Below are positions 1-12,528 of a stretch of DNA of 64,000 bases, one piece after another. The notes beneath the pieces are model-generated. The model was not told the DNA's origin. It worked only from the letters and a program-made list of their open reading frames with translations, and did not search any database. Each line of letters starts with the position of its first letter. The first letter of the stretch is position 1. This stretch comes from Escherichia coli. GTDB lineage: Bacteria > Pseudomonadota > Gammaproteobacteria > Enterobacterales > Enterobacteriaceae. A program made the position numbers and the translations under genes. The DNA is taken from the NCBI RefSeq assembly GCF_051903065.1, contig NZ_CP178439.1. One strand, 5' to 3'.

Positions 1-759
1 GCGGCATTGATGTTCGGCTCATTTGCTATCGGAGAGGGTGACGAGTTCTCTGATATCGAATTCGCAGTGTTCATCCAGGATGACCATTTTGAAAATTTCG
101 ATCAGCGCTCGTGGCTTAATGCCGTAAGTCCGGTTGCTGCTTACTTTCCGGACGACTTCGGCCACCACACCGCACTTTTTGAAAACGGCATTCGCGGTGA
201 ATTCCATTTCATGCGAAAATCGGACATACCGGTCATTTCCACTTGGCAAGGCTATGGGTGGTTTCCCTCGCTTGAGGCGGCTGTTTTGTTGGACCGATCA
301 GGAGAGTTGTCAAGGTACGCAAGCGCTCTCGTGGGCGGTCCCCCGATACGTGAAGGCGCGCCGCTGGTGGAAGGGCTTGTGTTGAACCTCATCAGCCTGA
401 TGCTCTTTGGGGCCAATCTTTTAAATCGGGGAGAGTACGCTCGCGCCTGGGCTTTGCTCAGCAAAGCACATGAAAACCTACTCAAGCTGGTTCGACTCCA
501 CGAAGGGGCAACAGACCACTGGCCGACACCTTCACGCGCGCTCGAAAAGGATATCTCGGAGGACTCGTATAATCGCTATCTGGCATGCACAAGCAGTGCA
601 GAACCAAGAGCACTATGTGCAGCCTATCATCAAACGTGGACGTGGAGTCTCGAATTGTTCAAGAGCGTGACAGAACCTCTGAATATCGAGCTTCCGAGAA
701 CTGTAATTGCGCAGGCAAAAAGGTTGCTCAATGAGTCTGCGACGCCGCACAACAAGTAA
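1..759 (+). CDS. lnu(F): Lincosamide nucleotidyltransferase, Lnu(F)-like; 5' end lies outside the window
   Basis: ORF 7..759 open to the window edge; nucleotidyltransferase motif FGSFAIGEGDEFSDIEF; recognised as Lnu(F)-like from memory; followed by attC-like and 3'-CS-like sequence. Confidence 0.6.
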   Translation, partial: AALMFGSFAIGEGDEFSDIEFAVFIQDDHFENFDQRSWLNAVSPVAAYFPDDFGHHTALFENGIRGEFHFMRKSDIPVISTWQGYGWFPSLEAAVLLDRSGELSRYASALVGGPPIREGAPLVEGLVLNLISLMLFGANLLNRGEYARAWALLSKAHENLLKLVRLHEGATDHWPTPSRALEKDISEDSYNRYLACTSSAEPRALCAAYHQTWTWSLELFKSVTEPLNIELPRTVIAQAKRLLNESATPHNK

Positions 760-848
760 ATCCAGCGGACGCATAAAAACGCGCCGCTGATTTTGACGTT
801 AGATGCACTAAGCACATAATTGCTCACAGCCAAACTATCAGGTCAAGT
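760..848 (+). other. Cassette attC remnant plus first bases of class 1 integron 3'-conserved segment, cut by IS26
   Basis: Sequence gttagatgcactaagcacataattgctcacagccaaactatcaggtcaagt matches the start of the 3'-CS as I recall it; abuts the IS26 end at 849. Confidence 0.45.
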
Positions 849-1668
849 GGCACTGTTGCAAATAGTCGGTGGTGATAAACTTATCATCCCCTTTTGCTGA
901 TGGAGCTGCACATGAACCCATTCAAAGGCCGGCATTTTCAGCGTGACATCATTCTGTGGGCCGTACGCTGGTACTGCAAATACGGCATCAGTTACCGTGA
1001 GCTGCAGGAGATGCTGGCTGAACGCGGAGTGAATGTCGATCACTCCACGATTTACCGCTGGGTTCAGCGTTATGCGCCTGAAATGGAAAAACGGCTGCGC
1101 TGGTACTGGCGTAACCCTTCCGATCTTTGCCCGTGGCACATGGATGAAACCTACGTGAAGGTCAATGGCCGCTGGGCGTATCTGTACCGGGCCGTCGACA
1201 GCCGGGGCCGCACTGTCGATTTTTATCTCTCCTCCCGTCGTAACAGCAAAGCTGCATACCGGTTTCTGGGTAAAATCCTCAACAACGTGAAGAAGTGGCA
1301 GATCCCGCGATTCATCAACACGGATAAAGCGCCCGCCTATGGTCGCGCGCTTGCTCTGCTCAAACGCGAAGGCCGGTGCCCGTCTGACGTTGAACACCGA
1401 CAGATTAAGTACCGGAACAACGTGATTGAATGCGATCATGGCAAACTGAAACGGATAATCGGCGCCACGCTGGGATTTAAATCCATGAAGACGGCTTACG
1501 CCACCATCAAAGGTATTGAGGTGATGCGTGCACTACGCAAAGGCCAGGCCTCAGCATTTTATTATGGTGATCCCCTGGGCGAAATGCGCCTGGTAAGCAG
1601 AGTTTTTGAAATGTAAGGCCTTTGAATAAGACAAAAGGCTGCCTCATCGCTAACTTTGCAACAGTGCC
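849..1668 (+). mobile_element. tnpA: IS26 copy 1 (820 bp), transposase CDS 912..1616, Gly at residue 184 (KRIIGATLG)
   Basis: Terminal inverted repeats GGCACTGTTGCAAA at 849 and TTTGCAACAGTGCC ending 1668; 234-aa Tnp26 ORF; flanks ggtcaagt / catttatg do not match. Confidence 0.95.
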
Positions 1669-1928
1669 CATTTATGAATGTTCCTGTTATGGCTTATGTT
1701 CAAGAAAGCATTGCCCCTGAAATGATGGGCAAGGTGTTTTCCCTTTTGATGACCGCCATGACTCTTTCTATGCCGATAGGCTTACTTGTTGCAGGTCCGG
1801 TTGTTGAGGTTATAGGTGTTAATACATGGTTTTTCTGGTCTGGTGTTGCGTTGATAGTAAACGCTGTTCTCTGCCGCATTCTGACACGACGCTATGACAA
1901 AGTAACAATGAAACCGCAAGTGGACTGA
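1669..1928 (+). pseudogene. mef(B): C-terminal fragment of an MFS macrolide-efflux protein, Mef(B)-like, 5'-truncated by IS26
   Basis: Hydrophobic C-terminal 86 codons in frame directly after the IS26 end; sul3 nearby fits the known sul3/mef(B) association. Confidence 0.5.
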
Positions 1929-2073
1929 AAAAAGGACCGGGTTGATGATAATTTGTAGTGGTGAGCTTCTGGGAGTACAAAACAAAGTGCTCAAAATTGT
2001 CGGGCTCATGGCGTTTAACGGTATTAATTTCGCTTATAATAATCTTTCTATAATAGCCTAAAGGAGAATATCT

Positions 2074-2937
2074 ATGATACCTAATAGCGAAAATAAAAGA
2101 GTATGGTTTATTACCGGAGCAAGCAAGGGGCTTGGCTATGCTTTTACATGCGCCGCCTTGAAAGCCGGGGATAAAGTTGTTGCAGTTGCAAGGACTATCG
2201 ATAATTTGGCGAAGCTAGAAGAAACATATCAAGAGAGCTTACTGCCATTAAACCTCGATGTTACAGATAGGGAGGCTGTTTTTTCTACGGTTGAAACAGC
2301 AGTTAAACATTTCGGTAGGCTTGATATTGTTGTTAATAATGCGGGTATCATGACTATGGGTATGATTGAAGAACTAAACGAATCCGATGCTCGGAAACTA
2401 ATGGACACAAACTTTTTTGGAGCTCTTTGGGTTTGTCAGGCAGTGATGCCCTATTTGAGGTCGCAGCGTTCTGGACATATCATACAGATTACAAGCATTG
2501 GCGCTATTATCTCGGGTCCGATGTCTGGTATTTACAGTGCAAGTAAATTTGCGCTGGAAGGAATGAGTGAAGCCTTAGCAAAAGAAGCGGAACATTTCGG
2601 AGTGAAACTCACTATGGTGGAACCAGGAGGATATTGGACAGATTTATACACTTCGATGAGTTACAGCAATCCATTAGATTCATACGGTACACTGCGCGAT
2701 GAGCTGGCGAAACAGTATTCCGAAGATTCGGTCGATAGTGATCCTTCCTTGGCAGCGGAAGCCCTTATGAAATTAGTAGCCAGCAATAATCCGCCTTTGA
2801 GGCTTATCCTTGGCAGCATGGTATACGATTTGGCGATGGATACCTTAAAAGCACGGATGGCTACCTGGGAAGAATGGGAAGCTGTTAGCCGTGCATCAGA
2901 AAAGGCTATTCCTGCACCGGAGAGATATGGAGTATAA
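2074..2937 (+). CDS. Short-chain dehydrogenase/reductase (SDR) family oxidoreductase
   Basis: TGASKGLG cofactor motif, NNAG, and YSASK catalytic motif in a 287-aa ORF. Confidence 0.75.
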   Translation: MIPNSENKRVWFITGASKGLGYAFTCAALKAGDKVVAVARTIDNLAKLEETYQESLLPLNLDVTDREAVFSTVETAVKHFGRLDIVVNNAGIMTMGMIEELNESDARKLMDTNFFGALWVCQAVMPYLRSQRSGHIIQITSIGAIISGPMSGIYSASKFALEGMSEALAKEAEHFGVKLTMVEPGGYWTDLYTSMSYSNPLDSYGTLRDELAKQYSEDSVDSDPSLAAEALMKLVASNNPPLRLILGSMVYDLAMDTLKARMATWEEWEAVSRASEKAIPAPERYGV

Positions 2938-2974
2938 TACCAAACATGGTTTTTGAGGCAAGGACGAAACTATC

Positions 2975-3220
2975 ATGAAAATTGAAATTATGGAATATAA
3001 CCCGGATTGGACAAAGAATTTTGAAGAAGAGAAAATAAAATTGCTCCATTTTTTCGGTTCTCATGCCGTAGCCATTGAACATATCGGAAGCACGGCGATA
3101 CCCAATCAACGGGCGAAACCGGTTATAGATATATTTATTGGCGTTTCGCCTTTTGCTGAACTACCTTTTATCAGCGCATTTTTAATGCAAAGGAGTATCA
3201 CCACACTCCGACAGATATGA
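2975..3220 (+). pseudogene. GrpB/UPF0157-like nucleotidyltransferase, N-terminal fragment
   Basis: 81-aa ORF with EHIGSTAIP...KPVIDI motif; about half the expected family length. Confidence 0.35.
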
Positions 3221-3688
3221 CAGGCAGATATTTGTTTGCAAAATATACAAATGAAGTTTGGACCCATAATCTTCTTGCTTTGGTGTAGGTATAATACCCA
3301 AAAACGAAGTTTATGCGGAACAGGATAACACCTCGAAATCGGAGTTTATATGGCTTCGTGGGGGAGTTATGTGTTTGAGCTTTGTCGCATTAACGCGAAT
3401 CAGGGGTTGACGGCAGAAATAGACTGGAATTACACTTCTTGGAGTCGGCGTTGCCGGAAAATTCTGATTGGATTAGTTGTTCGGGGTGCGAAAACAGTCG
3501 TAGTTCGGGGAAAAAACCGAATTTTGACCCAAAACCGCGAAAAACTCGAAATGACAGTTCCTATCAGTTTTCATAATGAATTAAAACAAAAAAATTAGGC
3601 TGCAAAGATAGGGAAAATGTGTCAATTTGCGTAAGTGATAATTAGTCAATTAAGATAAATGCTACTTTTGTAATCAAAGCAAAATGAT

Positions 3689-4480
3689 ATGAGCAAGATT
3701 TTTGGAATCGTAAATATAACCACCGATAGTTTTTCCGATGGAGGACTTTATTTAGATACAGATAAGGCAATTGAGCATGCTCTGCATTTGGTTGAAGATG
3801 GAGCAGATGTGATTGATTTGGGAGCCGCTTCCAGTAATCCTGATACAACTGAAGTGGGCGTTGTGGAAGAAATCAAAAGACTCAAACCTGTCATTAAGGC
3901 TTTAAAAGAAAAAGGCATTTCTATTTCTGTTGATACATTTAAACCTGAGGTTCAGAGTTTTTGCATAGAACAAAAGGTTGATTTTATTAATGATATTCAA
4001 GGTTTTCCTTATCCTGAGATTTATTCAGGCTTGGCAAAGTCAGATTGCAAACTTGTGTTGATGCACTCCGTTCAGCGAATTGGTGCAGCTACTAAAGTTG
4101 AAACGAATCCGGAAGAGGTTTTTACTTCCATGATGGAATTTTTTAAAGAAAGAATTGCTGCTTTAGTTGAGGCTGGTGTAAAGCGTGAACGAATTATTCT
4201 TGATCCGGGTATGGGCTTCTTTTTAGGCTCTAATCCAGAAACATCTATTCTTGTTTTGAAGCGTTTCCCTGAAATTCAAGAAGCTTTTAATTTGCAAGTA
4301 ATGATTGCAGTGTCACGGAAATCATTCTTAGGTAAAATAACTGGAACCGATGTGAAATCTCGTTTAGCACCAACTCTTGCAGCAGAAATGTATGCATACA
4401 AAAAAGGTGCAGATTATCTCCGCACCCATGATGTTAAGTCTTTATCAGATGCCTTGAAAATATCCAAAGCCCTAGGTTAG
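3689..4480 (+). CDS. sul3: Dihydropteroate synthase Sul3 (sulfonamide resistance)
   Basis: 263-aa ORF starting MSKIFGIVNITTDSFSDGG, recognised as Sul3; DHPS fold motifs. Confidence 0.9.
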   Translation: MSKIFGIVNITTDSFSDGGLYLDTDKAIEHALHLVEDGADVIDLGAASSNPDTTEVGVVEEIKRLKPVIKALKEKGISISVDTFKPEVQSFCIEQKVDFINDIQGFPYPEIYSGLAKSDCKLVLMHSVQRIGAATKVETNPEEVFTSMMEFFKERIAALVEAGVKRERIILDPGMGFFLGSNPETSILVLKRFPEIQEAFNLQVMIAVSRKSFLGKITGTDVKSRLAPTLAAEMYAYKKGADYLRTHDVKSLSDALKISKALG

Positions 4481-4701
4481 TTTTATTTTTTTAGCTTTCT
4501 AAATGAATATGCTATACTTGCTCTGAAGTTGTGTTGGCGTACTTGACTTAGGTCTGGATCTTTCGAACTGTTACTAAGAGGGTAATCATAGCCAAACATA
4601 AACTGGAAATGTCCTAATTCTAAACCTGTTCCAATACCTACACTATGGTGATGCTGCCAACTTACTGATTTAGTGTATGATGGTGTTTTTGAGGTGCTCC
4701 A

Positions 4702-4977
4702 GTGGCTTCTGTTTCTATCAGCTGTCCCTCCTGTTCAGCTACTGACGGGGTGGTGCGTAACGGCAAAAGCACCGCCGGACATCAGCGCTATCTCTGCTCT
4801 CACTGCCGTAAAACATGGCAACTGCAGTTCACTTACACCGCTTCTCAACCCGGTACGCACCAGAAAATCATTGATATGGCCATGAATGGCGTTGGATGCC
4901 GGGCAACCGCCCGCATTATGGGCGTTGGCCTCAACACGATTTTCCGCCATTTAAAAAACTCAGGCCGCAGTCGGTAA
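4702..4977 (+). CDS. insA: IS1 InsA
   Basis: 91-aa [43 protein letters not shown], zinc-finger InsA. Confidence 0.85.
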
Positions 4978-5399
4978 CCTCGCGCATACAGCCGGGCAGT
5001 GACGTCATCGTCTGCGCGGAAATGGACGAACAGTGGGGATACGTCGGGGCTAAATCGCGCCAGCGCTGGCTGTTTTACGCGTATGACAGGCTCCGGAAGA
5101 CGGTTGTTGCGCACGTATTCGGTGAACGCACTATGGCGACGCTGGGGCGTCTTATGAGCCTGCTGTCACCCTTTGACGTGGTGATATGGATGACGGATGG
5201 CTGGCCGCTGTATGAATCCCGCCTGAAGGGAAAGCTGCACGTAATCAGCAAGCGATATACGCAGCGAATTGAGCGGCATAACCTGAATCTGAGGCAGCAC
5301 CTGGCACGGCTGGGACGGAAGTCGCTGTCGTTCTCAAAATCGGTGGAGCTGCATGACAAAGTCATCGGGCATTATCTGAACATAAAACACTATCAATAA
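4896..5399 (+). CDS. insB: IS1 InsB reading frame (expressed as InsAB' by -1 frameshift)
   Basis: Overlapping downstream ORF inside IS1. Confidence 0.75.
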
Positions 5400-5442
5400 G
5401 TTGGAGTCATTACCGGAGAATTGTATCATTAACAGTCTAGTT

Positions 5443-6108
5443 CTAACGACTACCACTTTTAAGTATGTATTGAGCCAGTTTTATATTCAGGCACACCATA
5501 TTGCACTCTAGCTCTTTCATCATTCTTGAAGAACTCTTAATTAAGTATTCTTCAAGTGGGCCAGCATATGCCCCTGATGTCACGATCGTTAGTTGCGTAA
5601 GAGGATGAGTCAAACTCTCAATGCCCTTCAGGATGTCATTCTGGACAGCAGCAATATAAACAGGCGAAGCCGCAATCAAATATTCATCATTCGGGCTGGA
5701 CTGCATTAACTGGCTTATAGTTGCGCAACGGTTATGCTTACCTAGTGATTTTGTGATGGCTTTCCACCAGAGATCATGCCTGAATGGTACTTGATGAAAT
5801 GTCGCCTCGTAAGAGGGCACCCGATCTCGACTATTTAAAAACCCCATCCCGGCAGAGATTATCCACAACTCCAGATTTCTGGTTGAGTTTAAAATTTCCT
5901 TTGCCGTAGACCAGTGATTACCTGAATACAAGGACAATGCCGGTACCGCCTGATTACTTCTGGCGTCGTCTACAATGTTACTCCAGGCATATGCTGCGTC
6001 GTCCGGGGTTTGTTTTGGATCTATGTCCAATGTCGGCCAGACGTGGCCCTGATGATTCTTGCCCTTTGTACAGGAAGTGATTAAGTGTACTGAGCGTTCA
6101 GAGAACAT
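5443..6108 (-). CDS. Hypothetical protein (221 aa)
   Basis: Six-frame ORF in AT-rich backbone; no family recognised. Confidence 0.5.
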   Translation of the reverse strand: MFSERSVHLITSCTKGKNHQGHVWPTLDIDPKQTPDDAAYAWSNIVDDARSNQAVPALSLYSGNHWSTAKEILNSTRNLELWIISAGMGFLNSRDRVPSYEATFHQVPFRHDLWWKAITKSLGKHNRCATISQLMQSSPNDEYLIAASPVYIAAVQNDILKGIESLTHPLTQLTIVTSGAYAGPLEEYLIKSSSRMMKELECNMVCLNIKLAQYILKSGSR

Positions 6109-6165
6109 TATCTTCCTTACATACCCATAGAACAGCTTTCTAAGAACGGTGGGCTCGCCTGAAAA

Positions 6166-6546
6166 TTACAAATCAGCCCCTTTCACGGCATCATTTTGAT
6201 TCTTCGCGTCTGCCCCCAGTAAGATGACCGGTTTTCTGCATGACAGTGTTATTCCTAACAAACGCAACACAAAACCACGCCAGCCAGAGCAAATTTTTTC
6301 ATTTGCTGCGTAAAGCCTATTGTTTTCTCTTTTAAGCTTCGCCCACTCGTTACAGAGGGTAACATCATCAAGCGCTGTTATATGCTTCGCCTCACCTTCG
6401 ACGATAACGGTATGGATACCGTATGCTGTAAATCTCATACTATTTTCCAGAACCCAGTTGCGGTATTCGTCGAGTCCACCTTCGGAACCGGTAGCTCTGC
6501 GCCACATTTCAATTTGCTTGTGTGATGGGTCAAGTGTACTTGTCAT
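6166..6546 (-). CDS. Hypothetical protein (126 aa)
   Basis: ORF upstream of and co-oriented with 5443..6108; divergent from the 7189 operon. Confidence 0.5.
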   Translation of the reverse strand: MTSTLDPSHKQIEMWRRATGSEGGLDEYRNWVLENSMRFTAYGIHTVIVEGEAKHITALDDVTLCNEWAKLKRENNRLYAANEKICSGWRGFVLRLLGITLSCRKPVILLGADAKNQNDAVKGADL

Positions 6547-6814
6547 TGAAGCCTCGTCTCAGCGATAACGCTTGAAATAGCCCGCTTTGGTCATCATGAA
6601 ATTAGCCATCTGACTGGCGATTTGATTGTATCTTACTCATAGTGCCCTACCTATAGGTTAAAAAGGGGCATTTTCGCTTTATAGCGTGTTCAGCAGCATC
6701 AATCCTCCCAAGAAAGGCTGGCTTATTAAGCCGGTCCATCATTTTCTGTATATCTCTCATCAATTTTTATATCCGCCCTGGAGTGCACCGTTCAAGCACA
6801 CCGATTAGGCAGAT

Positions 6815-6875
6815 AGTCACTAGTTAACTCTTTACTAGTGACTAAATTCCATTGATATACGTGACAACGTCACGT
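6815..6875. promoter_or_regulatory. Two perfect palindromes (AGTCACTAGT-N9-ACTAGTGACT and ACGTGAC-AAC-GTCACGT) in the divergent intergenic region
   Basis: Read directly at 6815..6843 and 6859..6875; a third palindrome AGTAAAG-C-CTTTACT lies at 7084..7098. Confidence 0.35.
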
Positions 6876-7188
6876 CATGAAAGCTTATAAATGCCTATTT
6901 TTCATACAATGGGATTTAATTAGGAGTAAATCCCATAGGCTTACATAAGGATGACAATTAAAAGCGTTAAATATCAACCAGATAGAATGATTACCCCCAA
7001 TTAATGGGCTCATCACATTATTTCACTGGCTGGGGTTATTGCTGGCATATCTGAAAGTGCTAATATGTTAGTCATTAGTAATTAGTAAAGCCTTTACTAA
7101 ACGCGTTTCTACGTAAATTCTATAGGTTTTATAGTGTCCTACCTTTGCTCAAATCAAAATGTTCTGACATACCAAAATGGAGTGTAAA

Positions 7189-8007
7189 ATGACTCAAAAC
7201 CAGGGTTCTGAGCCAGTACCGGCGAGCCGGACAGGGCAGCTCATCAGCGCCCGGGATATGGCCATGCAGAAATTCGAAGAAGGGATGCGGTTAATCTCGG
7301 AAGCGTCGGAACTGTGCGGTCTCTCTCTCTTCACCAGCAGAATTATGCAGCCCAACGCATTTGGTCTTCCGTCGTCACTGGATCGCACCATCGAGGAGGG
7401 GCGTAAGGAAATTGACCGTAAAACGTGGAAAAGGCTCTTTGAAGAAACAGGTATGGACCGGTACTGGAACCATAAGCAAAAAGAAGCCTTTAACGAATCC
7501 CTTCGTACGGATCCGCCCGTCGCTTCCCTGGAGATTGTTAAGGGAACATTACAGCATGCACTGGCTAACAGACGAGACACCCTTGCAGAAGGTTTCGTTG
7601 ATGTTCTCAACAAGCTTGACCGAAGTTTCAAAAGCAATGCCAGGCAATATACAATGCCAAAAAAGCTTGTTCTTCGGGGGATTTTTCCTGGTGTGAACGT
7701 GCTGAGGTACAACGGTTTCTCGCAGGACAATCACTTTTGTTTACGCGACTTTGAGAATATTGTATGCATCTGTTCTGATACTCCAACACCTGCAACCGGC
7801 GGTGGGCTGAGTATGGTCGACAGGCTGACGGCCATGAGAAATACAGAATTCACAGGCGAGGTCAGTGATGAGAATGGCTGGCGGTGTCGCCTGTTTGAGA
7901 ATGGAAACGTTCATATTTGCATCGACAGTATCTCGCTTCTGAATGCTCTGAACGATCTTATCAGCATATATTTTGCAAACCAGCTTCCGGCCGCAGGAAA
8001 AAAATGA
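7189..8007 (+). CDS. Hypothetical protein (about 272 aa)
   Basis: ORF 7177..8007; ATG at 7189 has GGAG 6 nt upstream; stop overlaps next start (ATGA at 8004..8007). Confidence 0.55.
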   Translation: MTQNQGSEPVPASRTGQLISARDMAMQKFEEGMRLISEASELCGLSLFTSRIMQPNAFGLPSSLDRTIEEGRKEIDRKTWKRLFEETGMDRYWNHKQKEAFNESLRTDPPVASLEIVKGTLQHALANRRDTLAEGFVDVLNKLDRSFKSNARQYTMPKKLVLRGIFPGVNVLRYNGFSQDNHFCLRDFENIVCICSDTPTPATGGGLSMVDRLTAMRNTEFTGEVSDENGWRCRLFENGNVHICIDSISLLNALNDLISIYFANQLPAAGKK

Positions 8008-9209
8008 TGATTGAAAATGATAAAGAAAAAAGCCTGAACGATGCTACCCCGCCAGAGGTGCAGAATGACATCCGCAGCGAATCCACTGAAAAATCAAAGG
8101 AAATGGGTCGTTCAAGGTACTCATCTATCGCGATGATCGATTACTTCAATGCAATCGAACGTCTGTGCAAAGAGAAAGAAATTAACCCGGAAAATATCGA
8201 TCTGAGCTTCAAAGTTCACTGGCTCAGAAACGCTGTTGGCGGCTCGTTTGCAAGGTCACAGGAGATGTTCGCGGAGTACCAGAAGTATGTTAAAGAGGTT
8301 CCTGAAGAGGCCCGTTACCTGGATATACCCGATGAGGTAAAGGTTGCACTCGGCGATATTATCTCGTACATCACCTGGCACTACCGTAGAAGCTATACCG
8401 CAATACAGAATGATAGTGTTAAAAAAGCTGAAGCACGTAGCATGCAGCTGGAGGAGGAGGTAACGCAGCTGTTACAGCGGCTTGAGCAAAGCGCTACCGA
8501 TATGGATGAGCTGAAACTTGAGAATCAGGCACTACAGGGTCGATTAGAGATCCGGGACAGTACCGTCAAGGAGTTAGAAACAAGGCTGAATGTTGCCGAA
8601 GCAGAACTCGAAACCTGCCATCACCAGTTAGATAGCACACGGCATGAATTGAGCCTCGCACAGCAGTCAAATGACTCACTCTCCCAGCAACTGGCTGAAC
8701 GTAAAACAGAGATCGCTGGTCACCTTGAATATCAAAAAAAGCTGAACGAAGAGATCAACACGCAGCGTTCTGATAACGCCGGTCTTTCCAGACAATGCGA
8801 CCAGTTAAGTCAGACTGTGTCAGATACAAAGGCAGAGAGGGACAGGTTTGAACAGGAATTGATTGCTGCACAGAACCTTTGTACTGAGCTGAAAAGTGCA
8901 CTGTCCGGGAAAGAGGGTGACCTGGTGGCGGTGAATGCCGAGCTTACTGAACTCCATAAACTAAACGAGTCGCTGAGCGCCGACCTGAATAAAGTAACTT
9001 TGGTCAGCCAGGGCTATGAAGCGGAAGTGGCTGAACAAAGCAATGAACTCAAAACGCTCCAGGCCAAAGTAATGAAGCTGGAAGCTACCCTGGAGGCGGA
9101 GAAAACAATCTCAGAATCCCTAAAAGGCACCATTGATACATTAACTGGTGCAATGGCAGGGGGAGGTACTGGAAAGTCAAAACAGCCGCGTAGCAGAAAA
9201 ACATCATGA
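8004..9209 (+). CDS. Coiled-coil protein (401 aa), KfrA-like architecture
   Basis: Globular N-terminus then ~300 aa of heptad-like E/Q/L-rich sequence; translationally coupled to upstream gene. Confidence 0.55.
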   Translation: MMIENDKEKSLNDATPPEVQNDIRSESTEKSKEMGRSRYSSIAMIDYFNAIERLCKEKEINPENIDLSFKVHWLRNAVGGSFARSQEMFAEYQKYVKEVPEEARYLDIPDEVKVALGDIISYITWHYRRSYTAIQNDSVKKAEARSMQLEEEVTQLLQRLEQSATDMDELKLENQALQGRLEIRDSTVKELETRLNVAEAELETCHHQLDSTRHELSLAQQSNDSLSQQLAERKTEIAGHLEYQKKLNEEINTQRSDNAGLSRQCDQLSQTVSDTKAERDRFEQELIAAQNLCTELKSALSGKEGDLVAVNAELTELHKLNESLSADLNKVTLVSQGYEAEVAEQSNELKTLQAKVMKLEATLEAEKTISESLKGTIDTLTGAMAGGGTGKSKQPRSRKTS

Positions 9210-9272
9210 TAAATGAAGCCAGGTTGATACACTTCTCTGCATCCCCTGGCACATAAGAACTTCTGCGGACAT

Positions 9273-9476
9273 TCAGCCCGTCCGCAGGAGTTTTCGTCCT
9301 TCAGTCAACAAATGCACTACCTTTTTTGAGTCTCCACTTTCCAGAGCAGAAAACACGTTACCGATTCTACCAACAGCTTGTATCTGAGTGATAACCCCAG
9401 TCTTGTAATCATCTAGGATCCCTGACAGGAAAGCGTTCAGTTTTGTCTGTTCGCTTAGCGAAAGCATGTAGGACAT
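9273..9476 (-). CDS. Small hypothetical protein (67 aa)
   Basis: ORF immediately downstream of 9489..10808 on the same strand. Confidence 0.3.
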   Translation of the reverse strand: MSYMLSLSEQTKLNAFLSGILDDYKTGVITQIQAVGRIGNVFSALESGDSKKVVHLLTEGRKLLRTG

Positions 9477-9488
9477 TTTTTCTCCATT

Positions 9489-10808
9489 TTAAGCAGGTGT
9501 GTCAGTTGAAAGAGGTTTGCGTGATTCTGGAAAATGAGGCAGCACCATAGTTTCAGATGCTGTGGTCGCATCCCAGTGCCACCATCCATAAGGCCCATAT
9601 TCACGGTTGTAATAATCTTTTTTGAGTTGCTTTCGGGCCAGATAAGCAGGAGTGGCCATACCAAATACTTCCATCGGGAACGGCTTATCGCTTTTTGTGT
9701 CGAGCAGGTAGAAGTCAGGGAACACCTCACTAATACTCGCATCATAACGCATGGGCTTAACGTACTGCCGGTGCTCTGCATCCAGCTTTTCTGCAACAAC
9801 CGCCTCATAGGAGGAGTCCAGAGGTATCCAGTTCTCGCTAACGTGCATCAGCACAATTTGATGAGCTCTTACAGAAGGGCCTCTGCCGGTTACCGCAGCT
9901 GGTGACGTCAACGCAAAGACAACTATTTTCGCCCCGGATTTCCATGCTGCGTACTCCGATGAAAATCGTTTCTTTACGCTATCCCAATGGACTTCTGAAT
10001 TGAAAAAAATCAGCGGTAGCCCCCCAAAATTCCGCAGGGGTAAAAATTTAAGTGGCTTCTCATGCTTTTCAGCATCGTAGCGAGGTAAAACTGACAGGAG
10101 CATGAGACGTTTATCACTCATCGCCTGTGATGAAAGACGCTGAATTTGCGACTGAGCGACAGGTTGTTTCGGGTCAGGTACACCAATGAATAAATGGTCA
10201 CCTATGCAGGCTCTGCCGGTACGAATTTGTTTAGCGGTTTCAAGCAGACGATACCGTACCAGTGAATCGTTACGTTTCCCTGCCATTTTCGGGTACCAGA
10301 CATTCAGACCAGACTCTGTCCACAAAAGACTAAGCAAGCCCAGGAGGGTCATTGAGGCCTGACCTCCTTCTGGTCGCTGAACATGGGGCAGGGGAGGCAC
10401 TTCTGATTTTTCAGGAGGATCTTTCTCTGTCATACCGATACCGAGCCTTACAGCCATATCACCTTCGGTTGTAATCCGGACCACACCACTCGCATATCCT
10501 TTCAGGCCGGTATGCCGGGCATCAAGGGAGAAGAATACACAGGAAGGATCATGCTCAATGCCCGTGTTAGCGGCTTTGACGAGAATAAAGGCATCACCGT
10601 TCGGTAAAGCACGAACATAAAGTCGCTTTTCTCCTTTTCCACGACATCCGCAGGTGATGACTGATTTTTGACCTGAGGTGTGGTGTGCCTTTTTAAGAGC
10701 CGACTGCCACCCTTTAGCAAACTCATCCTGCGTTTGAAAGTCAGGTGAATACCTTTTGACGTTTGGATCGTCGTCGTAAGCAATCATCACTGCGAATTTT
10801 TGGCTCAT
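9489..10808 (-). CDS. Hypothetical protein (439 aa), conserved-plasmid-protein appearance
   Basis: Long ORF with AGGAGA RBS 6 nt upstream; co-oriented downstream of the Dcm-like gene. Confidence 0.6.
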   Translation of the reverse strand: MSQKFAVMIAYDDDPNVKRYSPDFQTQDEFAKGWQSALKKAHHTSGQKSVITCGCRGKGEKRLYVRALPNGDAFILVKAANTGIEHDPSCVFFSLDARHTGLKGYASGVVRITTEGDMAVRLGIGMTEKDPPEKSEVPPLPHVQRPEGGQASMTLLGLLSLLWTESGLNVWYPKMAGKRNDSLVRYRLLETAKQIRTGRACIGDHLFIGVPDPKQPVAQSQIQRLSSQAMSDKRLMLLSVLPRYDAEKHEKPLKFLPLRNFGGLPLIFFNSEVHWDSVKKRFSSEYAAWKSGAKIVVFALTSPAAVTGRGPSVRAHQIVLMHVSENWIPLDSSYEAVVAEKLDAEHRQYVKPMRYDASISEVFPDFYLLDTKSDKPFPMEVFGMATPAYLARKQLKKDYYNREYGPYGWWHWDATTASETMVLPHFPESRKPLSTDTPA

Positions 10809-10830
10809 AGTAGTCTCCTAAACAGGAAGT

Positions 10831-10998
10831 TTAATATCCCAACCAGAGCAACACTTCCTGAGCGTCATACTGTTCCTTTACGCCCATGTCGCTAAAGAAT
10901 TCTTCGAAATCTGTTTCGGGAACGCAATGCCTGGACAGTTCTTGTAATGCTCGTTCTTTAGATACCGTCTCACCTTCAGCTGATTCGAAATACGTCAT
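10831..10998 (-). CDS. Small acidic protein (55 aa, MTYFESAEGETVSKERALQELSRHCVPETDFEEFFSDMGVKEQYDAQEVLLWLGY)
   Basis: Hand-translated ORF below the 60-aa track cutoff, between the Dcm-like gene and the 439-aa gene; GAGG upstream. Confidence 0.35.
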   Translation of the reverse strand: MTYFESAEGETVSKERALQELSRHCVPETDFEEFFSDMGVKEQYDAQEVLLWLGY

Positions 10999-11058
10999 GG
11001 TTGACCTCTGACATTATTACAACAATCTTAAGCATTTAAATTGATGAAGGAGCTCAGG

Positions 11059-12528
11059 TCAGCTGACTTCGTCGTAAAACTGCCGCAAGCGCTGGGAGGC
11101 TGCAAATTCAATTCGTGACTTCAGCAGTTTGGCGACGGCCGCAAAGACATCAACGACCACGGAGTTCCCAAACTGTCTGTAAGCCTGTGTATTGGACACA
11201 GGGATACGGAAAACACTTTCCCCGGGTTTATCGAAGCCCATTAGCCTGCTGCATTCACGTGGCGTTAGCATGCGTGGCCGACGGTCCATGTTGTATGTGT
11301 TATGGAAATCAGTTTCTCCCAGTTCATGAGACCAGCCCCGATCAATAAGAATTTCAGATCCGTCTTTCATATAGCGGCTTGAGAGGGTTCTGGTGACACT
11401 ATTAACATTGGAAGGATCTACTAGTCCAAAACCAAAACCATTGCCTTTTGCCGCATGTTTCTTTGCATAGTTGTATAAGTACTCCCAGAGTTTAGGGGAG
11501 AGGATGTATTTACTATCTACGCTCGGATCCAGTAAATCTGAGAGAGAAGGGCGCTTGTCCGGATAAAAGTCTTTAATGTCTCTCAGAGTAAAACCGTCTT
11601 TCAGACGTAGGTCGCGGCGAAAACCAATAAGGACGATACGTTCACGGTGCTGGGGTCGGAAATGACGGCCATCGATGACTTTAGGATCATCCGCGCCCGT
11701 GCTTTCGCTGTTTGCGACGTCGTAGCCAAGCTCATCGAGCGTTTTCATGATGATGTTAAAGGTATTACCCTTATCGTGACTCTTCAGATTTTTTACGTTT
11801 TCCAGAACAAAAATTGCAGGTTGTTTTGCCCGGATGATCCTGGCCACATCAAAGAAGAGCGTACCCTGAGTGTCGCACTCGAAACCGTGTTTGCGACCCA
11901 TAGAGTTCTTTTTACTGACACCGGCGATGCTGAATGGCTGGCATGGAAATCCCGCAAGAAGAACATCATGATCCGGGATAGAGGCATCGATAAATTTGTA
12001 TGCCTCGTCATCAGTAACCTCGGGCCGGTTGCTAAGAGTGATGTCACGGATGTCTGAATTGAAGCGGTGCTCGTTCTCATCGCAATACCAGTTCGCCCGG
12101 TAAGTACGGCTGGAATAAGTATTCCATTCGCTCGTGAAAAGACATTTACCACCGATGGCATCAAATCCGCTTCGCAGTCCACCTATCCCTGCAAACAGAT
12201 CGATAAAGCTAAAGTGCCTGTCCTCATAATCAGCAGGTCGTGAAGGTATTAAAGTCTGTAGATAGCGTCCATCTGCGATACTCAGCTCACAATGCTCAGG
12301 TATGCATGTAACCTGACGTTTAAGGGATGCACGGGACCAATTACTGCCATTTTCATCATTTAATACCTGAGCCAGATATTTCAGGTCATAAATGGTCGAA
12401 GCTGTTAACAAAGTTTTGTGGATCAGAGATGGTGTTTTATCCACATCATTCAGGTCTGTCTCAAGATCATGAGTGTAACGTTTCATCCAAACTCTCTCAG
12501 GAATAATATCTTTGAGATAGATTAACAC
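11059..12528 (-). CDS. dcm: DNA cytosine-5 methyltransferase, Dcm-like
   Basis: Motif [16 protein letters not shown], motif [13 protein letters not shown] motif, QFGNSV; near-collinear with E. coli Dcm / M.EcoRII as recalled; no vsr downstream. Confidence 0.85.

Follow-up and report, generated by a model that had tools for sequence, protein, structure and literature searches.

The stretch of Escherichia coli DNA analysed here (contig NZ_CP178439.1; 64,000 nucleotides, hereafter the window) carries at 5443–9209 a block of four genes, two leftward and two rightward, that face away from each other across a control region. The block is best read as a conserved, dispensable segment of the IncHI (incompatibility group HI; HI1/HI2) plasmid backbone, made up of two independent transcription units placed back to back, with domain signatures that relate to DNA. 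The leftward unit encodes a small protein of 126 amino acids (aa) and a 221-aa relative of DpdC with a DUF6884 domain; the rightward unit encodes a DUF4942 protein of 272 aa and a protein of 401 aa with a helical head and a long coiled coil, called the rod protein below. Taken as a whole, the reading of this block as a pair of accessory operons, each under local autoregulation and with DNA-associated functions, is plausible but tentative, and falls somewhat short of an even bet.

The region 5400–9300 is backbone of an IncHI2 multidrug-resistance plasmid. It matches 1,183 plasmid records of 200–370 kb at 95–100% identity, from Escherichia, Salmonella, Enterobacter and Klebsiella hosts, and the assignment is made because these records type as IncHI2A / MOBH / MPF_F. 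The sequence itself is common in the databases, under DUF or 'hypothetical' labels.

The control region has a G+C content of 38%, against 49% for the window, and contains four inverted repeats (Table 1). When inverted repeats are counted as arms of at least 7 nt separated by a loop of at most 10 nt, overlapping matches included, the region holds 7 matches compared with 0.65 ± 1.0 in shuffled sequence; none of 500 shuffles reached 7, and 2% of the other 642-bp slices of the window have at least 7. The first-pass annotation had described three perfect palindromes here. Inverted repeats with perfect arms they are, but the term is too strong, because the spacers are non-palindromic and none of the three intervals equals its own reverse complement. 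The one at 6815–6843 (10-nt arms, 9-nt spacer) is better described as the 31-bp imperfect palindrome of site A, while that at 7084–7098 (7-nt arms, 1-nt spacer) lies inside site B, which consists of an inner 17-bp palindrome plus a tandem half-site and is centred ∼98 bp upstream of the DUF4942 ATG. The repeat with the core GTGAC-N3-GTCAC is single-copy in the window, with a chance expectation of 0.04. The fourth, at 6909–6936, is the longest perfect-armed repeat of the region and was absent from the earlier list. A search of the 64 kb for these repeat motifs found no further copies.

Comparison with relatives was made mainly with L004, an R27-like element found within the record of an E. coli chromosome; its DUF4942 protein is 64%, and its rod protein ∼41%, identical to those of the window. 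All four repeats are present there in the same order and at similar spacing, the start-to-start distances being 31/48/174 bp in the window and 39/47/191 bp in L004. In the pairwise alignment of the two, 68 of 76 positions in the repeat arms are identical (89%) versus 193 of 385 other columns (50%). The GTGAC and ATGGG repeats have changed spacers and preserved arms, and the arms of ATGGGATTTA-N8-TAAATCCCAT are identical while its spacer differs. Sites A and B appear with their roles swapped relative to the window: L004 keeps one half-site at the equivalent of site A (9659–9673), and has a full 31-bp palindrome at the equivalent of site B (9929–9959).

The GTGAC-N3-GTCAC core reaches further. 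It is kept in L003 (an uninterrupted IncHI2 backbone), L004, L005 and L008, and an identical 13-mer, GTGACACTGTCAC, occurs at 9698–9710 in L004, 9576–9588 in L005 and 4372–4384 in L008; its presence in divergent IncHI-like elements points to a shared binding factor. The more distant L005 (DUF4942 54%, rod head 34% identical) keeps GTGACACTGTCAC and is without the TAGTAAAG sites. It has instead a different palindrome with 13-nt arms ∼60 bp downstream of the GTGAC core, a position comparable to that of the ATGGG repeat, which lies 47–48 bp downstream of the core in the window and L004. A rod head of only 34% identity, the lack of TAGTAAAG sites and the presence of another palindrome in L005 fit co-evolution of an operator with its binder. 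Judged by their conservation, the repeats are real elements of a regulatory type, and the TAGTAAAG pair, at least, changes along with the local gene lineage. To this extent the earlier proposal that they are operator sites holds up: with their arms conserved and their order kept in L004, they behave as conserved operators would.

Table 1. Coordinates of the block, its control region, neighbouring genes and stand-alone DUF6884 loci on other plasmids (window positions unless a record is named; a point marks features without strand)
Feature	Position	Strand	Remark
DUF6884 / DpdC-like gene, 221 aa	5443–6108	-	open reading frame list
Small-protein gene, 126 aa; first gene of the leftward unit in IncHI2	6166–6546	-	open reading frame list
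Divergent control region, 642 bp	6547–7188	.	four inverted repeats
Site A, 31-bp imperfect palindrome TAGTCACTAGTTAAC-T-CTTTACTAGTGACTA	6814–6844	.	half-site TAGTCACTAGTAAAG
ACGTGAC-AAC-GTCACGT, core GTGAC-N3-GTCAC	6859–6875	.	7-nt arms, 3-nt spacer
ATGGGATTTA-N8-TAAATCCCAT	6909–6936	.	10-nt perfect arms
Site B, TAGTCATTAGTAATTAGTAAAG-C-CTTTACTA	7069–7099	.	half-site as in site A (TAGTCACTAGTAAAG)
Recurrent breakpoint / insertion point between the operons	7137/7138	.	19/40 sampled records, pC45_001 alignment
DUF4942 gene, 272 aa	7189–8007	+	RefSeq start ATG 7189
Head-and-rod gene, 401 aa	8004–9209	+	ATG overlaps DUF4942 stop
DUF1173 gene	9489–10808	-	
Dcm-type C5 methyltransferase gene	11059–12528	-	PADLOC label 'orphan'
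Stand-alone DUF6884 gene + small helix-turn-helix (HTH) gene, translationally coupled	L015 (pOXA-48-type IncL/M) 6726–7678		
Stand-alone DUF6884 gene coupled to 90-aa gene upstream of hns	L016 (R27) 8983–9938		

All four open reading frames described by the first-pass annotation are present at the coordinates it gave. It had placed the intergenic region at 6547..7176 (630 bp); the region exists, but the RefSeq start of the DUF4942 gene, which is also the likelier one with GGAG 6 nt upstream, extends it to the limits shown in Table 1. The reported overlap between the 272-aa and 401-aa genes is real, the TGA of the one and the ATG of the other forming ATGA at 8004–8007. Small open reading frames within the intergenic region are 20–43 aa long and none is conserved or supported. 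In the stretch that separates site A from the start codon of the 126-aa gene, a G+C-rich hairpin, GGCTGGCTTATTAAGCCGGTC, lies at 6716–6736; it looks like a terminator on either strand, and may act as an attenuator or mark where an unannotated transcript ends. An Rfam scan gave a sub-threshold hammerhead match only, which is taken as chance.

The rod protein consists of a conserved helical head (∼aa 36–140), a coiled coil (∼135–385) with a conserved C-terminal segment at ∼360–385, and a basic tail. Its description as mostly coiled coil is confirmed, residues ∼135–385 matching coiled-coil families only (the SMC coiled-coil region at E=7e-12, the crescentin rod, ATG16). In the family alignment the head and the C-terminal segment (EATL.AEKTIS.SLKGTI..LTGAM) are strongly conserved while the rod drifts, with conservation of the heptad type. 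A profile search with the head found only fragments from IncHI-type elements; the AlphaFold2 (AF2) model of the head was too poor and was not used. The claim that the protein has no P-loop is right in substance: AGGGTGKS at aa 385–392 (window 9156–9179) fits the PROSITE pattern but sits in the tail at the C-terminus, and homologues lack it. This motif is probably behind the label 'ATP/GTP-binding protein' in some GenBank records.

The 272-aa protein, listed earlier as unknown, belongs to Pfam DUF4942 (PF13708; E=2.8e-26, 92.8 bits against a cut-off of 25, profile positions 2–187 of 190). Among PHROGs it matches one of unknown function (E=4e-100) and, weakly, a phage 'DNA methyltransferase' family. 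An exhaustive search gave 583 representative homologues in two length classes, the long forms (447–602 aa) carrying a C-terminal S-adenosylmethionine (SAM) methyltransferase of MTS/N6_Mtase type in five of the seven that were scanned; in such fusions DUF4942 makes up the N-terminal half of an N6-type DNA methyltransferase. Across 86 sequences, residues W80, D187, H242 and N255 never vary. A PDB sequence search gave no significant match, and the confident AF2 model found no fold match in the PDB; among its best fold matches in BFVD is a 531-aa 'Type I restriction enzyme'. Distant stand-alone DUF4942 genes (26–33% identity) have no rod partner. In distant plasmids without a rod gene (L008–L010) the domain occurs near DUF1173 and SNase genes, and in a phage (L011) beside a Dam methylase.

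In the window, L003, L004, L005 and R27 the DUF4942 gene has the rod gene as its direct neighbour, through the ATGA overlap in the window and with a gap of 2 nt in L004 and L005. Photorhabdus has homologues of both proteins, on contigs each of 289,038 bp. By gene order, the two form a tightly linked bicistron that is conserved only in IncHI-type elements.

The 221-aa protein had been reported as unplaceable. Its Pfam family is DUF6884 (E=5e-7; score 30.4 bits, cut-off 30), and seven PADLOC profiles for DpdC match it as well, PDLC02818 being the best (E=4e-59); coverage of the DpdC profiles is 3–233 of 319, 2–213 of 299 and 6–179 of 312. A CxxxK motif lies at C13–K17 and ISAGMG at 84–89, and both motifs (CxxxK, ISAGxG) are kept in the homologues of L004 and of pOXA-48-type IncL/M plasmids. 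According to the Pfam curators, CxxxK and LSAxxG form the probable active site of DUF6884 (PMC11701544). These matches make it a stand-alone member of DUF6884, similar to DpdC, in which the putative active-site motifs are intact. A PDB sequence search with it gave no significant match.

Homologues of this protein occur in 3,024 PLSDB plasmids, mostly conjugative, at identities of 58% in R27, 40% in pOXA-48-type IncL/M and 37% in Klebsiella plasmids; the carriers of stand-alone DUF6884 genes are IncHI1, IncHI2, IncL/M and Klebsiella IncF plasmids. Across plasmids the gene shares its operon with small proteins, an HTH protein or hns, and one homologue is annotated 'tgtA5 cluster protein 2'. In intact backbones the next gene downstream (151 aa) belongs to no Pfam family. 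Neither dpdA (similar to tRNA-guanine transglycosylase) nor dpdB (DndB-like) is found in the annotated flanks of L001, L003, L004, R27 and the pOXA-48-type plasmids.

The 126-aa protein, also reported earlier as unplaceable, matches no Pfam, NCBIfam, PADLOC or PHROG family, and a PDB sequence search gave nothing significant. It is not without relatives, however, since homologues exist in thousands of IncI/K/F plasmids: with tblastn, proteins of 84–88 aa and 46–56% identity were found in ∼2,400 IncI/K and IncF(K) plasmids, in unrelated gene contexts. The gene is absent from the R27-like L004.

On its left side the block varies between relatives. IncHI2 plasmids have the 126-aa gene and the DUF6884 gene, leading on to hns; R27 and L004 have the DUF6884 gene, a 90-aa gene and hns, without the 126-aa gene; and L005 has an FRG-domain gene at this place. 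The control region itself is often split. Of 40 evenly sampled records, 19 begin to match at query 1734–1739, equivalent to window 7133–7138, and in pC45_001 the two operons are separated by 24.1 kb holding Tn3/TEM-1, IS26, catA2, tet(D), mcr-9, pcoS and rcnAR, with sites A and B no longer upstream of the DUF4942 operon. Accessory DNA enters at 7137/7138, which makes the intergenic region a landing site for it. In R27 (L016, NC_002305.1; 7680–8546, minus strand) the DUF4942 gene is split into open reading frames of 169 and 116 aa by an in-frame stop, R being replaced in the context ...SNA-R-QY..., and the gene is not in the PLSDB gene table. The stop could be a sequencing error in an old record; the R27-like copy in L004 is intact. 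Of the suggestion that the four genes are a module rather than random reading frames, the linkage of the rightward pair stands, but the split, the R27 stop and the variation on the left show that the four are not an obligate unit.

On its left, the block is bordered by a copy of insertion sequence IS1 (4702–5414), preceded by sul2 (3689–4480). The IS1 copy ends 28 bp past the stop of the DUF6884 gene. In the uninterrupted backbone of L003 the leftward unit runs on through genes of 151, 78 and 97 aa to the plasmid hns, none of which is within the window. To the right, colinearity with other IncHI2 plasmids continues to ∼15.8 kb. Many copies of a 240-aa IS26-type open reading frame, together with sul2 and other cargo, occupy 1–5400 and ∼16000–56000, and the block sits at the edge of this large IS26-structured resistance region.

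Genes for DNA enzymes are frequent nearby (Dcm, DUF1173, SNase, HNH, H-NS). Four genes of the same orientation at 9273–12528 (minus strand) encode a Dcm-type C5 methyltransferase, a 55-aa product, a DUF1173 protein and a 67-aa product; DUF1173 has been predicted to be a PD-(D/E)XK nuclease family (PMC3045609), and the group could be an unrecognised operon resembling type II restriction-modification. The arrangement of Dcm, small reading frame, DUF1173, small reading frame and SNase beside the DUF4942/rod pair is kept in IncHI2, R27, L004 and L005, and partially in L008–L010.

If the block does consist of two autoregulated operons, the TAGTAAAG-N-CTTTACTA palindrome, present twice, would provide local operators, one of them ∼100 bp upstream of the rightward operon and the second on the side of the leftward unit. 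As a sequence-specific binder of these, the conserved head of the rod protein would be the likeliest candidate; by analogy with KfrA or TlpA, a dimeric rod protein might repress its own operon and possibly the divergent one. The DUF4942 and DpdC-like proteins would act on DNA, through modification, base-flipping or protection, in accessory roles of establishment or 'stealth' and not in replication or partition.

Several results weigh against this proposal. None of the four proteins of the block has a statistically supported DNA-binding domain. The KfrA_N domain (PF11740) was not detected in the full rod protein or its head at E≤1, nor in ten family members at E≤10, and hhalign of the head profile with the head of R751 KfrA gave a probability of 0.2% and E=0.38, aligning only a 20-residue stretch that contains GGSF (LRNAVGGSFARSQEMFAEYQ vs VRKQLGSGSFTTISEAMNEWR). 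Of the KfrA-like architecture suggested earlier, the head plus long coiled coil remains, but homology to KfrA_N does not. A sigma-70 scan of the intergenic region gave no good promoter. GTGAC-N3-GTCAC and GTGACACTGTCAC are also present in L008, a plasmid without the rod gene, so that the binder of at least that repeat is probably another factor. The presence of TAGTAAAG sites correlates equally well with the DUF6884 unit and with the rod-protein subfamily, and this correlation therefore does not single out the binder. The insertion at 7137/7138 has deprived the rightward operon of sites A and B in about half of the IncHI2 records, which means that regulation from these sites is not indispensable. 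DUF4942 is named in only 4 papers, each time in passing.

A different account, possible though doubtful, is that the neighbourhood is an anti-restriction or DNA-modification island, in which DUF4942 (with the rod protein), the DpdC-like protein, Dcm, DUF1173, SNase and HNH protect or mark entering plasmid DNA, and the inverted repeats only time gene expression. It would draw on the fusion of DUF4942 to SAM methyltransferase domains in most of the long homologues scanned, its weak match to the phage methyltransferase PHROG, the restriction-enzyme fold match in BFVD and its recurrence near DUF1173 and SNase without a rod gene or beside the phage Dam methylase, as well as on the origin of DpdC in DNA-modification machinery and the spread of stand-alone DUF6884 over 3,024 mostly conjugative plasmids. 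The stand-alone DUF4942 protein, however, has no methyltransferase domain, no dpdA or dpdB in the annotated surroundings would supply a preQ0-DNA substrate, and scans of Pfam, NCBIfam, PADLOC and PHROG gave no matches to known anti-restriction families. In R27 the block lies ∼30–40 kb from the relaxase/oriT region, which also speaks against such an island; placement in the leading region was considered and is not established, given this distance from the relaxase. A bolder reading is a long shot: a lone DpdC-like enzyme of conjugative IncHI1, IncHI2, IncL/M (pOXA-48-type included) and Klebsiella IncF plasmids, catalytically intact, would chemically alter or repair bases of plasmid DNA without DpdA/B, and in IncHI would be co-controlled, through shared palindromic operators, with a new DNA-binding complex of DUF4942 and a rod protein that has no sequence relation to KfrA, all of them forming a hitherto unrecognised DNA-marking or establishment system.

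It is unlikely, though not negligibly so, that these are simply unrelated adjacent backbone genes, with a structural rod protein and with repeats that serve HtdA, TrhR/TrhY, H-NS/Hha or a host factor. The region is AT-rich, as is typical of H-NS targets, the presence of GTGACACTGTCAC in L004, L005 and L008 does not depend on a rod gene, relatives have exchanged their left-hand genes, and many plasmids have the region split; non-tra genes of R27 are broadly under HtdA and temperature control (PMC7366339). Such an account sits poorly with the confinement of the TAGTAAAG palindromes to one region of the 64 kb, their change along with the rod and DUF4942 lineage, and the strong conservation of the rod head, which suggests a specific ligand. 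The partition or maintenance module proposed by the first-pass annotation, with a KfrA-like adaptor and centromere-like repeats, is improbable. The head-plus-coiled-coil form does resemble that of the KfrA-type proteins that assist segregation (PMC7821693, PMC7783346), and half-sites are repeated upstream of the operon. Against this, the block has no NTPase domain (AGGGTGKS being unconserved), no ParA, ParM, TubZ NTPase or ParB is encoded nearby, and no ParA, ParB or Kfr genes are among the annotated neighbours in L001, L003 and R27; KfrA_N is lacking, DUF4942 has a stop codon in R27, and the plasmids in which the sites are split from the operon, about half of IncHI2, are still widespread and conjugative. 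The two characterised partition modules of IncHI plasmids are reportedly located elsewhere on the plasmid, as Lawley and Taylor are said to have described in 2003. An anti-phage role, through a Lamassu- or Wadjet-like (SMC-type) system or Dpd, is very improbable. PADLOC does give weak LmuB and JetC matches to the rod protein (E=2e-7 to 1e-3) and the strong DpdC matches to the 221-aa protein, but it finds no complete defence system: the LmuB, JetC and SMC matches, from PADLOC and NCBIfam, cover the coiled coil only, and the 401-aa protein lacks an ATPase head. The remaining Dpd genes (dpdA, dpdB, dpdD–K) are absent from the annotated surroundings, as is the C-terminal third of DpdC from the 221-aa protein. 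Because these components are missing, Lamassu, Wadjet and Dpd were each rejected as readings, and the earlier idea of a defence module is not supported.

IncHI2 plasmids are major carriers of mcr-1, mcr-9, extended-spectrum β-lactamase and metal-resistance genes, with a backbone mostly annotated 'hypothetical'. The analysis provides three testable handles on it: defined, conserved predicted operators with an obvious candidate binder; a first description of context for DUF4942, a domain of mobile elements nearly absent from the literature; and, as the most interesting by-product, a stand-alone relative of DpdC in over 3,000 sequenced plasmids, R27 and those of pOXA-48 type among them. If any of the proteins does act on plasmid DNA during establishment, this would bear on host range and spread; otherwise the region is dispensable cargo and a favoured landing site for resistance DNA.

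DpdC, of the Dpd system for 7-deazaguanine modification of DNA, is a DUF6884 enzyme acting on DNA, converting preQ0-DNA to DNA with 7-amido-7-deazaguanine (ADG-DNA) independently of DpdA/B (PMC10164549). The 221-aa protein shares with it the DUF6884 domain and the CxxxK and (L/I)SAxxG motifs, and differs in lacking the C-terminal third of the DpdC profiles (∼300–320 positions). While the Dpd system occurs in clusters with dpdA, dpdB and restriction genes, the 221-aa gene has none of these nearby and is found on conjugative plasmids. The Pfam curators relate the DUF6884 fold to the DNA-binding YaaA, and base-flipping DNA recognition has been proposed for YfjM (PMC11701544); the likeness of the 221-aa protein to YaaA and YfjM (the 'cantaloupe' fold) is a family-level analogy only. 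The DUF4942–methyltransferase fusions of phages and mobile elements have the same domain, with the invariant W, D, H and N, but carry a methyltransferase domain where the IncHI DUF4942 stands alone and is paired with a coiled-coil protein.

For the rod protein, the nearest likenesses are TlpA and KfrA. TlpA of the Salmonella virulence plasmid is a plasmid-encoded autorepressor in which a DNA-binding part at the N-terminus is followed by a long coiled coil. The resemblance is one of described architecture, and thermosensing by the rod protein would be an analogy with TlpA only. IncHI plasmid functions are temperature-regulated (PMC7366339), and in an R27 microarray R0159, R0160 and R0162 were 2.1–2.7-fold higher at 37 than at 25°C, a lead only, should these R numbers correspond to genes of the block. 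KfrA-type proteins combine a globular DNA-binding head and a long coiled-coil tail with autoregulation (PMC7821693, PMC7783346), the former paper describing KfrA as a transcriptional autoregulator that binds an operator in its own promoter. Like the KfrA proteins of IncP-1 and IncU plasmids (R751, RK2, RA3), the rod protein is plasmid-encoded, has a head and a coiled coil, and is of similar size (401 aa, compared with 342 aa for KfrA of R751); the short aligned stretch of its head bears some likeness to that of KfrA. It differs in its conserved C-terminal segment and basic tail and in a head family restricted to IncHI-type elements; its gene is second in an operon after DUF4942 and not beside korA-incC-korB or kfrB/kfrC. 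Where KfrA has an operator in its own promoter, here there are conserved palindromes ∼100 bp upstream of the operon as candidate operators. On the favoured reading the block is a variant of the plasmid head-and-rod autoregulator theme, one without KfrA homology and with a DUF4942 protein as partner.

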